Source: Candidatus Latescibacterota bacterium
GTDB lineage: Bacteria > Latescibacterota > UBA2968 > GCA-2709665
Assembly (NCBI GenBank): GCA_965237675.1
Contig: OZ250150.1
Coordinates: 3,584,001 to 3,648,000 of the forward strand
Length of the DNA stretch: 64,000 nt
Direction of reading: 5' to 3'
In this document: positions 1,148-42,871 of the stretch, one piece after another
Numbering within the stretch: position 1 is the first letter of the stretch
Layout of the letters: each line of letters opens with the position of its first letter
Translations under genes and position numbers: made by a program
Notes under the pieces: model-generated
Told to the model about the DNA's origin: nothing
Databases searched by the model: none
The model's input: only the letters and a program-made list of their open reading frames with translations

Positions 1148-1176
1148 TTGACTTCTCCGTTCCGGTGGCGTATATT
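1148..1176 (+). promoter_or_regulatory. Sigma70-type promoter of the upstream structured RNA/sORF
   Basis: TTGACT (1148-1153) - 17 nt - TATATT (1171-1176). Confidence 0.7.
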
Positions 1177-1204
1177 TTCGTTTACACAGAAAGGAGGTGG
1201 TCGA

Positions 1205-1240
1205 ATGAGCGAAATGACCAGTGGAGGTGGCTGTAGTTAG
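1205..1240 (+). CDS. Putative micropeptide MSEMTSGGGCS
   Basis: ATG 6 nt after AGGAGGT (1192-1198); TAG at 1238-1240; too short for the ORF track. Confidence 0.35.
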   Translation: MSEMTSGGGCS

Positions 1241-1385
1241 GTGCGCTGCCGGGTGCGGGAGAACATCTCGTCTGGTAACGCGCCTGGCGAATCTAAACAG
1301 CCATCGAAAGACAGGCGATCCGTCGTTCCGACGGGCCCCGGCGATGTTGGCGGGGTACCGTGAGATGGAGGCCGTCTCGAGATTT

Positions 1386-1440
1386 GCGCCGTGATGAGAT
1401 GTGGCCGGACAACCGGCTCCCAAATCGCGGCGCATTTTTC
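1386..1440 (+). terminator. Intrinsic terminator
   Basis: GCGCCGTGAT (1386-1395) pairs with ATCGCGGCGC (1424-1433), followed by ATTTTT. Confidence 0.6.
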
Positions 1441-3408: not shown

Positions 3409-4008
3409 ATGGCTATTTCTGCGAAGATGGTTCAGGAACTACGGGCTAAGACCAACGTGGGGATGATGGATTGCAAACGAGCCCTCGTTGAGAGTGACGG
3501 GGATATGGAGAAAGCCATTGAGCTTCTGCGGACCCGTGGCATTGCCAAGGCGGAAGACCGCGCGCACCGGGCGGCGAAAGAAGGGCTGATCACGTCGTAC
3601 ATCCACACAGGCAGCAAGCTGGGGGTGCTGCTGGAAGTCAACAGCGAGACCGATTTTGTTGCGCGAACGGACCAGTTCCAGGCTTTTGCCCGGGATCTCG
3701 CAATGCACATCGCGGCCAGCGCCCCCATCGCCGTTGGCCGCGATGAACTGGATGAGTCAAACGTCGAGCGCGAACGCAGGATCTTCAGGCAGCAGGCGCT
3801 GGATGACGGCAAACCCGAGCGGGTTGTCGACCGGATTGTAGAGGGGCGTTTGGAGAAGTACTTTCAGGAGGTCTGCCTCATGGAACAGCCCTTTGTAAAG
3901 GATCCGGACAAGACGGTCAGAGACCTGCTGATGGAACTGATCGCCCAGTGCGGTGAGAATGTGACCATCCGGCGGTTTGTGCGGTTTGTTCTCGGTGAGG
4001 ACAGCTAG
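3409..4008 (+). CDS. tsf: Elongation factor Ts (short 199-aa form)
   Basis: VQELRAKTNVGMMDCKRAL, EVNSETDFVAR, MHIAA motifs. Confidence 0.98.
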   Translation: MAISAKMVQELRAKTNVGMMDCKRALVESDGDMEKAIELLRTRGIAKAEDRAHRAAKEGLITSYIHTGSKLGVLLEVNSETDFVARTDQFQAFARDLAMHIAASAPIAVGRDELDESNVERERRIFRQQALDDGKPERVVDRIVEGRLEKYFQEVCLMEQPFVKDPDKTVRDLLMELIAQCGENVTIRRFVRFVLGEDS

Positions 4009-4127: not shown

Positions 4128-4685
4128 ATGGTTGACGAGATTCTTTCAGAGACCAGGCAGACAATGGCAAGAACCGTGGAAGCATTTCAACACGAAATCG
4201 CCACCGTTCGGACTGGTCGGGCAAACATGGCGTTGCTGGAAAATATTCGCGCTGAATACTACGGCTCCAAAGTGCCGCTCAACCAGGTGGCCACTATAGG
4301 CATCCCGGAGCCGCGGCTGATTGTTCTTCAGCCGTGGGACAAGAGTGCAATCCCCGCAATTGAAAAGGCCATACAGACGTCGAATTTGGGTCTGACGCCG
4401 TCCAACGATGGAACGGTTATTCGTTTGCCGATTCCACACCTGACGGAAGAGCGCCGTGCGGAACTCGTACGCGTGGTTCGCCAGATGGCGGAAGAGTGCA
4501 AGGTTTCCGTGCGCAATGCCCGGCGGGACGCCAACGAGATGTTCAGAGATGGTCAGAAGGAAGGCGAGATTCCCGAGGACGATTCCAGGAAGGGACAGGA
4601 ACAGGCGCAAAAGCTGACGGACGATTTCGTAGCCGAGATTGACAAGCTGCTGGCGCGAAAGGAAGAGGAAATTATGGAGGTCTGA
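4128..4685 (+). CDS. frr: Ribosome recycling factor
   Basis: RTGRAN, YYGSKVPLNQVA, LTEERRAEL, VRNARRDAN. Confidence 0.98.
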   Translation: MVDEILSETRQTMARTVEAFQHEIATVRTGRANMALLENIRAEYYGSKVPLNQVATIGIPEPRLIVLQPWDKSAIPAIEKAIQTSNLGLTPSNDGTVIRLPIPHLTEERRAELVRVVRQMAEECKVSVRNARRDANEMFRDGQKEGEIPEDDSRKGQEQAQKLTDDFVAEIDKLLARKEEEIMEV

Positions 4686-41098: not shown

Positions 41099-42871
41099 AT
41101 GCATAGAAAGATACTCTTCCACGTTGTAACGGCCGCAAGCCTTCTGACGGCTCCAGCGGTCCACGCGGAAAACAGCATCCTGCAGCGCGCCCTGCGCGAC
41201 GAATTGGCGCGCTCGATGAAGGAACTTCAGCTTGAAGACCTGGAACGACCCTACTTCATTTCCTGCCATGTGCACGAAATGAGGTCCAGAAGTAGCTCGG
41301 CGACGTTCGGCAGTCTGCTGACAAGTCAGAAGAGCCGCTCGCGCACACTCACTGTGGAAGTGCGTGTGGGCGACTACGCCCTCGACAACACCAACTTCCG
41401 CGCGTTCGCCTTCGGCGGAACCGGGGTGGTGCGCATGAGAGGGGGCAGCGTGGGACTGACTCTGGAAGACGACTACAATGAGTTGCGGCGCAAGATCTGG
41501 CTGGCCACCGACGGGGCCTATAAGAAAGCCCTCGAGGATCTTGCAAAGAAACGCGCCGCCCTGCAGAACAAGACGCGCACCGAGGAGATACCCGATTTCA
41601 GCAGGGAGGCACCGGCAACCGAAGTGGACGAAATGGCGCCGGCCGTATTGGATCTCGACACCCTGGACCGGCGGGCGCGGCACCTCTCCGCGCTGTTTCG
41701 CGAGATGCCCGATATCCATACCTCGCGCGTCCGATGCAGCGGATCCAACACCTCCGTCCACTACCTCAATAGCGAGGGTTCTTCCTTCTCCCGCTCGAGT
41801 TCCTTGCTGGCCTTCACCGCCGTCGCCGGAACGCAGGCTCCCGACGGCATGCCCGTGCAGGACTTCGTTGCCGTGTACGCGCGTTCAGCCGATGGCCTTC
41901 CCGACGACAAGGAACTGGCCGCCCGCATCGGCGCCCTGGGTGAGCGCCTGCGGAAGCTGCGCCTGGCTCCCCTCGTGGATCGCTTTACCGGACCGGTGAT
42001 CTTCTCGGGCCAGGCGGCCACGGAACTGTTCAGCCAGGGGTTTGTACCCTATCTGTTGTCCACGCGTCGTGCATTGACCGACAATCCGGATTATGAGCGC
42101 TTCTACCCCCAGGCGAAGGAAAACCCGTTCATGGACAGGATCGGCGTGCGCGTGCTACCCGATTTTCTCAGCGTTCGCGCCGCGCCGCTTACAGACGTCT
42201 ATAAGAAACGGCCATTGTTGGGCGGCTACAGGATCGACGACGAAGGGGTCCCCGCGCGCCAGACCCGGCTGGTGAGCAGAGGCGTGCTGGAGACCCTGTT
42301 AACGACCCGAACCCCGGTTCGAGGCATCGACCGGAGTACGGGAAGCCGGCGAGGACCCGGGATCGGGCCGAGCAACATCCTGGTTGAGCCGGAGAAGGGA
42401 TTGAGCGAAGACCAGATTCGGAGGGAATTCTTCAAACTGATAAGAAGGCAGAAGAAAGAGTACGGCTACATCGTCACCCACGTCGCCAACCCGTTATACA
42501 CAATAGGCGAAACGCCCAGTCTCTTCATTTCGTCAGGACCGTCAAACGAGGCAATCAAGGTGGAACACCCGGTCTACGTATACAGGGTCTACCTGGACGG
42601 ACGAAAGGAACTGGTGCGAAATGCGCAATTCGCAGGCATCGGCGCCCATACCTTCAAGGACATCGTGCAAGTGTCCAGGACGCACGCGGTAAACACCTTT
42701 CCCTTTCGCTCGCGGGACAATTCCTCGCCGTTTTCCGGCCGGCGGGGCCGTCAAGTCCTCGCAAGTATCGTCACCCCTCGAATGGTCCTTTTCGAAGACA
42801 TCACGCTCAAGCCGCCCAGCGGCGAGATTCCCAAAGCGCCGGTTTCCCCGCATCCCTACTTCGATAGATGA
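41099..42871 (+). CDS. TldE/PmbA-like non-catalytic partner with signal peptide
   Basis: Paralogous to the upstream gene (RVGDYALDNT, DDEGVPAR, VYRVYLDGRKELVR) but lacks HExxGH; start moved to ATG 41099 (AGGAG SD). Confidence 0.8.
   Translation: MHRKILFHVVTAASLLTAPAVHAENSILQRALRDELARSMKELQLEDLERPYFISCHVHEMRSRSSSATFGSLLTSQKSRSRTLTVEVRVGDYALDNTNFRAFAFGGTGVVRMRGGSVGLTLEDDYNELRRKIWLATDGAYKKALEDLAKKRAALQNKTRTEEIPDFSREAPATEVDEMAPAVLDLDTLDRRARHLSALFREMPDIHTSRVRCSGSNTSVHYLNSEGSSFSRSSSLLAFTAVAGTQAPDGMPVQDFVAVYARSADGLPDDKELAARIGALGERLRKLRLAPLVDRFTGPVIFSGQAATELFSQGFVPYLLSTRRALTDNPDYERFYPQAKENPFMDRIGVRVLPDFLSVRAAPLTDVYKKRPLLGGYRIDDEGVPARQTRLVSRGVLETLLTTRTPVRGIDRSTGSRRGPGIGPSNILVEPEKGLSEDQIRREFFKLIRRQKKEYGYIVTHVANPLYTIGETPSLFISSGPSNEAIKVEHPVYVYRVYLDGRKELVRNAQFAGIGAHTFKDIVQVSRTHAVNTFPFRSRDNSSPFSGRRGRQVLASIVTPRMVLFEDITLKPPSGEIPKAPVSPHPYFDR

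Follow-up and report, generated by a model that had tools for sequence, protein, structure and literature searches.

RNA element upstream of rplM

What is the short, heavily structured element that stands ahead of the ribosomal protein genes rplM and rpsI in a genome of the Candidatus Latescibacterota, and does it serve those genes, encode a peptide, or do something of its own? The element occupies positions 1184–1439 of a 64,000-nt stretch of contig OZ250150.1 (positions 3,584,001 to 3,648,000; assembly GCA_965237675.1), referred to here in its entirety as the window. With a probability that we put at roughly 60%, it is an independently transcribed small mRNA/small RNA (sRNA) of ~256 nt, a divergent Latescibacterota member of the Ms_IGR-5 superfamily that works like the rre small mRNAs. 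Ribosome docking followed by translation of a micro-open reading frame (micro-ORF) would be the best reading of its anatomy, and fits both the behavior of rreB and the ribosome footprints on Ms_IGR-5 homologues in the sections of the sources cited below.

A conserved, structured, putative transcription unit

The predicted transcript (1184–1439, plus strand) extends from an ACAC start (1184–1187) to the end of a T-run, and its 5' end at ~1184 is a prediction based on the promoter and the first position of the RF02471 (Ms_IGR-5) model. It is preceded by a sigma-70-type promoter (1148–1176) composed of a −35 TTGACT (1148–1153), a 17-nt spacer, and a −10 TATATT (1171–1176), with 10 of 12 consensus matches. 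A 1.8-kb scan returned two promoter-like sites (0.8 ± 1.0 in shuffled sequence), the other being the rplM promoter (TTGACA-17-TATCTT; 1461–1489), which lies outside the RNA and marks its independence. The unit is closed by an intrinsic terminator (1386–1439) with a 9-bp outer stem (1386–1394/1425–1433), an inner hairpin (1403–1408/1413–1418), and a TTTTT run (1435–1439), which was missed by a simple terminator scan because its loop is too long. Among the homologues printed from the same order, nearly all retain TTGACT together with a −10 that resembles TATATT (TATGTT or TATACT in two), every one has a T-run of 4–8 at the terminator, and the predicted transcript is conserved from end to end. 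The sequence-only reading that preceded this analysis had named a promoter, a 15-nt complement of the 16S rRNA, an ORF with a second Shine-Dalgarno (SD)-like motif, hairpins, a terminator, and a separate rplM promoter, and all of these were found at the coordinates given here. Its view of a stand-alone structured RNA that is not simply the rplM leader also holds, given the promoter and terminator of the RNA, insertions ahead of the rplM promoter in some relatives, and homologues in other phyla that lie away from rplM.

The element is found almost throughout the order. A BLAST search with positions 1140–1500 identified it in 40 of 41 genomes including G000 (20/21 in family f1 and 19/19 in family f2), the only miss being a 70-contig assembly at 92% completeness (G003), and the 5' 127 nt have 79–100% identity across the order. 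A covariance model of the 5' domain built from sequences of the order only (R1) and applied to 151 genomes detected exactly one copy per genome in 17/18 members of f1 and 30/30 members of f2, whereas f3 gave a single weak match (1/2), and f4 (0/64) and the remaining families gave none.

The region 1183–1440 is predicted to fold at −121 kcal/mol (z = −5.1), a value matched by none of 200 shuffles. An alignment of 35 full-length copies yielded an RNAalifold structure with 54 pairs, 17 of them with compensatory changes; with helix P1 (see below) added, 99.1% of cells are paired (93.5% in shuffles), the 17 compensatory pairs compare to 10.6 ± 1.4 and were reached in 0/500 shuffles, and the covariation score is 0.282, against ≤0.088 in slid-partner controls. 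The sequence-only reading had proposed that homologues be collected and examined for covariation, and within the order the helices do covary. The nearly invariant 5' domain (1184–1305) opens with a P1-bulge-P2 module (1185–1223), in which P1 joins CAC (1185–1187) to GUG (1221–1223) and P2 joins UGGUC (1198–1202) to GACCA (1216–1220), leaving the core of an extended SD bulged between them (AGAAAGGAGG; 1188–1197) and an AUG (1205–1207) in the P2 loop. The predicted unpaired probability is 0.89 for the bulged core, 0.07 for UGGUC, and 0.88 for AUG. A long-range helix, P3 (1226–1305), pairs GGUGGCUGU (1226–1234) with ACAGCCAUC (1297–1305) and encloses the P4–P6 domain (1241–1289) and a conserved GGCGAAUC motif (1286–1293). 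Beyond P3 lie a 3' domain of nested hairpins (1309–1378), in which helices 6–8 have eight pairs changed on both sides and for which no counterpart was seen in the homologues from other phyla, and the terminator, where helices 9–10 have seven such pairs in the alignment. Helix P6 and a long-range pairing of AUCUC in the 5' domain with GAGAU near the terminator were considered and are not claimed, as the variation gives them no clear support.

Complementarity to the 16S rRNA tail

The extended SD (SD1; AGAAAGGAGGTGGTC, 1188–1202) is a 15-nt complement of the 16S 3' tail with one G-U and is invariant in 35/35 aligned homologues, save for position 1188 (A or G). The 16S gene of the genome itself is located on the same contig, ~118 kb upstream, and ends ...GGATCACCTCCTTTCT, with which SD1 forms 12 Watson-Crick pairs, one G-U, and two further pairs. 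The pairing that had been proposed against a common bacterial 16S 3' end therefore holds for this organism, on the inference that the mature 3' end is the usual one. Among the 15,866 GGAGG sites of the genome, SD1 has the longest contiguous complement of the 16S tail (15 nt), excepting the antisense of the 16S gene (16 nt), and its predicted duplex energy with the tail is −26.4 kcal/mol, compared to −17.2 for rplM, −21.3 for rpsI, and −10.3 for rpsB. Long SDs are general in this genome, and both rplM and rpsI bear GAGAGGAGGTG-type sites. In all lineages examined, the complementarity extends to the very last nucleotide of the 16S.

A micro-ORF conserved in frame

The micro-ORF (1205–1240) consists of an ATG (1205), ten further codons, and a TAG (1238–1240), reads MSEMTSGGGCS, and has within it a second SD-like motif (SD2; GGAGGTGG / GGAGGUGG, 1223–1230), of which 1226–1230 belong to P3. 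The ATG, ten codons, and stop are at the same place in 45/45 loci of the order, where 21 distinct ORF sequences specify 21 distinct peptides and the variable sites number 3, 4, and 4 at codon positions 1, 2, and 3, without a third-position bias. A change of Gly9 to Asp in some relatives is a G-C to A-U compensatory change in P3.

Across phyla, the start in the P2 loop is in frame with the conserved stop in 91/91 sequences, a set made up of 80 loci matching the 22-base pattern described below and 11 sequences of the order (three further sequences of the order without the exact pattern were dropped). The start codon is ATG, GTG, or TTG in 87/91 and CTG in 4/91; at one locus (L152) the sole ATG/GTG/TTG-type codon, a TTG, lies in frame but 29 nt downstream, and a CTG placed as elsewhere is the more probable start. 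An in-frame loop start is present in 77 of 82 distinct sequences, compared to 20 and 26 in the other two frames, and the frame is still kept although the spacing of the two SD motifs ranges between 24 and 43 nt, with the start 7–14 nt from the GGAGG core. The SD2 motif itself is read in three frames, as EVAxx* in most phyla, GGGCS/R* in the Latescibacterota and Eisenbacteria, and QRWLLQ/G* in the Planctomycetota. The stop (TAG in 83/91) is located 4–6 nt past GGCUG, and the GGAGG-equivalent core of SD2 ends 7–9 nt ahead of the last sense codon in the printed sequences (7 nt in the window RNA); 7–9 nt is also the spacing of an SD from the P-site codon. Because the frame is kept in 91/91 sequences while three different frames cross SD2, it appears to be translation and the position at which it ends, and not the peptide, that are conserved. 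A second ORF, starting from a GUG/AUG directly past the stop, was rejected when judged by eye, its length and frame not being conserved.

Relation to Ms_IGR-5 across phyla

Ms_IGR-5 is described in Rfam as an actinobacterial sRNA first found in Mycobacterium smegmatis. No Rfam family matched the 64-kb window at gathering thresholds, while a permissive search aligned 1184–1323 to RF02471 end to end at 25.7 bits, below the threshold of 45 (E = 7e-4 in a 621-nt search). An Rfam comparison, which had been put forward together with the sequence-only reading, thus yielded no confident match and one below threshold, and the initial view of an RNA without known relatives gives way to one in which the architecture places it with RF02471. 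Two other permissive RF02471 matches, at C1:4400352-4400529 (30.4 bits) and in the window at 42597–42756 (19.5 bits), are without the motif, were not found by R1, and are ascribed to chance; they warn that permissive Rfam matches of this size in GC-rich genomes are noise. Within 1000–1620, weak matches to Atu_Ti3 (13.7 bits) and CC2171 (11.7 bits) were rejected, and no match to 6S RNA, signal recognition particle RNA, transfer-messenger RNA, or RNase P RNA was obtained at E up to 10 or at gathering thresholds.

With the bit score at noise level, the kinship rests on architecture. Ms_IGR-5 and the window RNA share the ACAC 5' end, a bulged GRAAGGAGGUGGUC, a P2 whose loop holds the start codon, GAGGUGGCUG within a long-range helix, a conserved stop (mostly UAG), a closing strand of the form GGCGAAUCY...CAGYCAYC followed by a terminator, and a micro-ORF of 11–17 codons. 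The window RNA differs in one extra G, which shifts the frame over SD2 to GGGCS* and not EVAxx*, in its P4–P6 insert, in an additional 70-nt 3' domain, in a U-tract terminator, in adjoining rplM, and in belonging to a phylum other than the Actinobacteria with a score below the RF02471 threshold. As judged from these sequence features, the window RNA is a divergent member of the known, functionally unexplained Ms_IGR-5 family. In the sections cited, Ms_IGR-5 has been validated by RNA-seq in S. lividans (PMC8079986) and described in S. avermitilis as an sRNA transcription unit of its own (PMC8780764), and its homologues carry ribosome footprints in M. abscessus and M. smegmatis (PMC4974804).

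An exact 22-base pattern, AAGGAGGTGGTC-N(8-38)-GAGGTGGCTG, matches at least 118 stretches of a species-representative genome collection. Among the 80 matches listed, 67 belong to the Actinomycetota and 13 to other groups according to their record titles (four Blastocatellia, one Terriglobales, two Planctomycetota, one metagenome-assembled genome labelled Heliobacteriaceae, one labelled Syntrophobacter, and one each from the Eisenbacteria, Latescibacterota, Zixibacteria, and Sumerlaeota), so that the groups named in the titles span nine or more phylum-level groups. The Latescibacterota record carries an f2-type sequence followed by rplM and rpsI. The RF02471 threshold was passed by 8 of the 18 pattern loci scanned, with ten below it, and the bit scores fall with distance from Mycobacterium (179, 172, 150, 126, 98, and 85, then 49.6 in the Blastocatellia and 48.8 in the Acidimicrobiales); the window RNA shares the exact pattern with the loci scoring 85–179 bits. 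In the other direction, R1 gives full-length alignments in 39 of 43 sources (for example Eisenbacteria, 50.4 bits; Nocardioides, 42.0; Blastocatellia, 37.2) and in none of the four negative controls, and scores the RF02471-positive loci L093, L097, and L134 at 42.0, 35.2, and 25.3 bits, these loci having been preselected by a pattern that lies within the model.

P1, the ORF frame, and a motif downstream are the only features free of this preselection bias. P1 covaries across phyla at a fixed register (CACG/CGUG, CGCG/CGCG, CACA/UGUG, CCGA/UCGG, CACC/GGUG, CAGC/GCUG, GCAGA/UCUGC, and others), with a mean best helix of 4.70, compared to 4.04 ± 0.08 when partners were shuffled (reached in 0/300 shuffles). 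The AAUCC...CAG..ACC motif that closes P3 (window 1286–1305) recurs at 62 of the 77 loci from other phyla, against 0.83 expected in shuffles, and near variants occur in most of the 15 misses. A catalogued actinobacterial sRNA thus has architectural relatives in at least nine phylum-level groups, including an uncultured candidate phylum, and for the purposes of genome annotation the RF02471 model is too narrow and misses most of the family.

Comparison with the rre small mRNAs

The closest characterized analogue is rreB, the likeness being one of anatomy. As reported in the cited sections of PMC5711450 (Hahn et al., RNA Biol 2017), rreB of Bradyrhizobium japonicum is a small mRNA of 165 nt whose SD spans 17 nt and whose ORF has 14 codons. 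It co-sediments with the 30S subunit, binding of which needs the 5' extension of the SD; it is weakly translated, and removal of the start codon stabilizes it (start-codon-dependent decay). From the same sections, rreB and rreR share with the window RNA the form of an independent small transcript flanked by a promoter and a terminator of its own (those of the window RNA being predicted from sequence), an SD that covers the whole single-stranded 16S tail and of which only the 5' part is predicted to be single-stranded, a tiny ORF (14 or 18 codons in rreB/rreR, 11 in the window RNA), a 7-nt spacing between AGGAGG and the start, and a genomic context that is not conserved between lineages. The complementarity of the rre RNAs is perfect over 16–17 nt and reaches the first base of a GTG start, whereas the window RNA has 12 perfect pairs, a G-U, and two more pairs, ends 2 nt before the ATG, and falls short of a perfect match of at least 16 nt. 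The RreB and RreR peptides, unlike that of the window RNA, are reported as conserved within their clades, and these sections of PMC5711450 make no mention of a second SD or of a P3.

Other systems resemble the element in part. The model consensus of the Caulobacter sRNA CC2171 (RF01867) opens with a GAAAGGAGGUGAUCC-type complement of the full 16S tail, although its match to the window scores 11.7 bits against a threshold of 75 and falls on a different part of the window (1298–1360); in the control genome of Caulobacter, RF02471 likewise gives a signal below its cut-off. We regard it as a lead, and not a match, that CC2171 might belong to the rre type. Leader-peptide attenuators and erm-type leaders likewise combine a short ORF that has its own SD with a second SD sequestered in a helix that the ribosome opens, whereas the window RNA has no conserved ORF behind SD2, a terminator far from the stop, and a transcription unit of its own. 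In the literature searched, no follow-up of rre was found beyond the original paper, the papers on Ms_IGR-5 and on rre did not cite each other, no paper was found under systematic M. tuberculosis sRNA names for the syntenic site, and no description was found of the breadth of the superfamily, of micro-ORF conservation independent of frame, or of the placement of SD2 relative to the stop. The present analysis links these two strands of the literature.

A proposed ribosome-docking cycle

The features that point to the ribosome, namely complementarity to the 16S tail in its entirety, a start codon held in the loop of a hairpin, a frame kept through three solutions, and the spacing of SD2 to the stop, suggest the following cycle. 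The unpaired, purine-rich core of SD1 in the P1–P2 bulge near the 5' end would act as a seed for the 16S 3' tail, and pairing would zipper over the whole tail (15 nt), melting P2 and exposing the AUG in its loop. A ribosome would then translate the 11-codon frame, the peptide itself being irrelevant, and in doing so open P2 and P1 on their 3' sides and P3 on its 5' side. With the stop codon in the A site, SD2 would be just out of the mRNA channel, at the spacing of an initiation complex, and because it sits at an initiation-like 7–9 nt from the P-site codon, the anti-SD could re-pair with it and retain the ribosome as it terminates. On this model the RNA would alternate between two states, one folded and free of ribosomes, the other unfolded and ribosome-occupied, with a possible downstream consequence for the stability of the RNA or the size of the pool of idle subunits. 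The hypothesis is testable in model Actinobacteria such as Streptomyces or Mycolicibacterium smegmatis.

A more far-reaching proposal, which we consider improbable, is that Ms_IGR-5, the Latescibacterota RNA, the short tandem-SD forms described below, and possibly rre constitute one ancient and widespread ribosome-docking RNA. Were this so, the conserved job would be to pair with the entire 16S tail of an idle 30S subunit, to its last nucleotide, either capping the tail against 3' exonucleases or parking the subunit; the micro-ORF would be a built-in release, with SD2 re-capturing the ribosome at the stop and a throw-away peptide, and recruitment beside rplM-rpsI, as a sensor of free subunits, would have been a further step in this order.

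Several observations weigh against an rre-like member of the Ms_IGR-5 superfamily. The RF02471 score of 25.7 bits means little alone, because an unrelated locus of the same genome scores 30.4, and the scores of P2, P3, and R1 across phyla arise in part by construction and have E-values that are not independent, because the loci were preselected by the exact 22-base pattern. Many of the compensatory changes are shared by whole clades (13–15 sequences) and represent few independent events, and the inner part of the 5' domain fits two mutually exclusive pairings equally well (95.7% and 98.1% paired). SD1 had been regarded as far longer than an ordinary SD; it does rank at the top with 15 nt, but 14-nt complements exist at twelve other sites in the genome, so it is no wild outlier. 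Ribosome sequestration and translation control, both entertained in the sequence-only reading, gained no support from the analysis, and a simple titration of ribosomes is argued against by rreB, of which a 20-fold overexpression in B. japonicum left growth unaffected in the cited sections of PMC5711450. The ends of the transcript are predictions from the genome sequence, and a 1459-nt contig from one RNA library (run X3) extends from 1205 through 1700 into rplM, for which read-through or library DNA are possible sources.

Linkage to rplM and rival explanations

Within the order, rplM lies downstream on the same strand, 330–549 nt from the 5' end of the RNA, at 37 of 45 loci; in the remaining eight, the fetched stretches are short and rplM was not seen within ~500 nt. 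The TTGACA element of the rplM promoter is kept in nearly all relatives printed, and in five of them (L007, L013, L014, L015, and L027) insertions between the terminator and this promoter place the TTGACA up to ~160 nt further away. Outside the order the association disappears, with rplM within 8 kb of a single locus, from the Latescibacterota, among the 80 pattern matches listed and of none of the other 79; in M. colombiense the next ORF appears, from the raw ORF list, to be convergent. No conserved neighbor emerged in the high-GC loci, where the flanking data are noisy and only rplM was tested systematically. Near-identical or related sequence occurs as contigs, which do not show ends or strand and may stem from DNA in the libraries, in four metatranscriptomic runs from four studies; gaps in their coverage carry no weight as evidence. 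In three of these, short contigs lie inside the predicted transcript (1219–1394, 1200–1391, and 1195–1344); in run X1 the RNA contig has a depth of 73.8 and rplM is a separate contig at 11.5, and run X3 has a further contig that runs from upstream to 1234. The contigs are weak support for expression of the RNA, and not for its boundaries.

These data bear on whether the element is a cis-acting leader or attenuator of rplM-rpsI, in which the loading of ribosomes onto the micro-ORF would set read-through of the terminator and provide feedback on free 30S subunits. An RNA with ribosomal features ahead of a ribosomal protein operon is suggestive, as are the constant position of rplM in the order and the run X3 contig that spans 1205 to 1700, and yet the terminator (1386–1439), with its T-run in every homologue printed, and the rplM promoter (1461–1489), kept in nearly all, separate the RNA from the gene. 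In addition, ~145 nt and a folded domain intervene between the stop and the terminator, such that a ribosome on the micro-ORF cannot reach the latter directly. With the five insertions, the separate contigs of run X1, the apparently convergent ORF of M. colombiense, and the lack of rplM near the loci of other phyla, a leader function is unlikely, and the linkage to rplM-rpsI, confined to this lineage, is probably an inherited gene order, although some read-through into rplM may occur. It is doubtful, too, that the element is a purely non-coding, trans-acting sRNA that pairs with mRNAs, for example through GGCGAAUC, with its ORF and SD complementarity as structural by-products. Conservation is indeed strongest at the level of the RNA and not of the peptide, the GAAUC motif is conserved across phyla, and Ms_IGR-5 was first described as an sRNA; however, start, frame, and stop persist in 91/91 sequences through loop lengths of 24–43 nt and three frame solutions, the start stays within 7–14 nt of the GGAGG core, the 16S is matched to its last nucleotide in all lineages examined, and ribosome footprints are reported on homologues (cited sections of PMC4974804).

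The sequence-only reading had also entertained a micropeptide, and had asked whether the peptide or the RNA is conserved; the answer is the RNA and the reading frame. A strong SD at a 7-nt spacing, an ATG and TAG invariant in 45/45 loci, and the nearly invariant residues TSGGGC within the order would suit a functional MSEMTSGGGCS, but the invariant residues coincide with P2, P1, SD2, and P3, the Gly9 to Asp change accompanies a compensating change in P3, every one of the 21 ORF variants alters the peptide with variable sites spread evenly enough over the codon positions (3, 4, and 4) to leave no third-position bias, and in other phyla the equivalent RNA motif reads EVAxx*, GGGCS*, or QRWLLQ*. 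A micropeptide gene is therefore very improbable. Least credible is a conventional protein-coding gene, for which the window does offer a 114-aa ORF on the minus strand (1091–1435) and a 57-aa ORF on the plus strand (1221–1394), as the minus-strand frame is free of stops across the element in only 18 of 45 homologues, the indels of the alignment are not multiples of three, and the covariation supports RNA helices.

Related sequences in the phylum and neighboring features

A relaxed tandem-SD pattern detected shorter variants in f3 (3/3), f4 (4/76), and f9 (2/2), as well as a second, short copy in G017, while a reversed-pattern control gave one match in 168 genomes. These short forms (G017:C1:6904617-6904660, L204–L206, and L202–L203) have an extended SD, a start-codon hairpin, and then AAGGAGGTGG, and in L068 an anti-SD-like strand, CCCACCUC, pairs with the second SD. 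In G017 a short form exists alongside the long one, so the phylum must contain two or more subfamilies. At a locus from genus g9 (L034; G038:C1:3075708-3075813), only the first ~60 nt resemble the window RNA (92% identity) and the remainder is shorter and different, with an R1 score of 65.5 bits over 106 nt and no rplM seen within the fetched stretch. When the 5' 127 nt served as a BLAST query against 168 genomes from the phylum, weak matches also appeared in G107, G139, and G141 and were rejected, the first being without the motif and the other two a different thing. The latter, both from f4 (L069 and L070), have ACAGAAAGGAGGTGGTTGA followed by ATG AGG TGA, an extended SD with a two-codon ORF, just behind a TATAAT-like box in the apparent 5' untranslated region of a secreted-protein gene, and are not matched by R1.

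One genome, G026, has two identical 37-nt direct repeats, 73 nt apart (C1, ~4613900–4614010; L201 2401–2510), which flank a 36-nt near-copy of the first bases of the RNA gene, itself 2.1 Mb away. The pair resembles a one-spacer, CRISPR-like mini-array aimed at the RNA gene of the same genome, an arrangement that we presume to be comparable to CreTA-type systems. The neighbors are a PBP_like_2 protein, an ORF without a family match, and an IS1595 transposase. A mini-array that guards a toxic RNA was not taken up as an explanation, with no cas gene within 2.4 kb of the repeats and a single genome involved.

Further downstream in the window, tsf (3409–4008) is followed directly by frr (4128–4685), as named by eye from the translations, without the pyrH gene that is often located between them. 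The start of rplM itself (ATG 1571; region 1521–1573) has no adjacent SD, and a strong GAGAGGAGGTGAG lies 41 nt upstream. A hairpin at ~1537–1564, which matched no Rfam leader family, occupies the intervening stretch and would place the SD near the start codon. The same arrangement of SD, hairpin, and start recurs in most relatives, with some members of f2 (such as L025 and L028) having no hairpin and an adjacent SD, and may represent an L13 autoregulatory leader.

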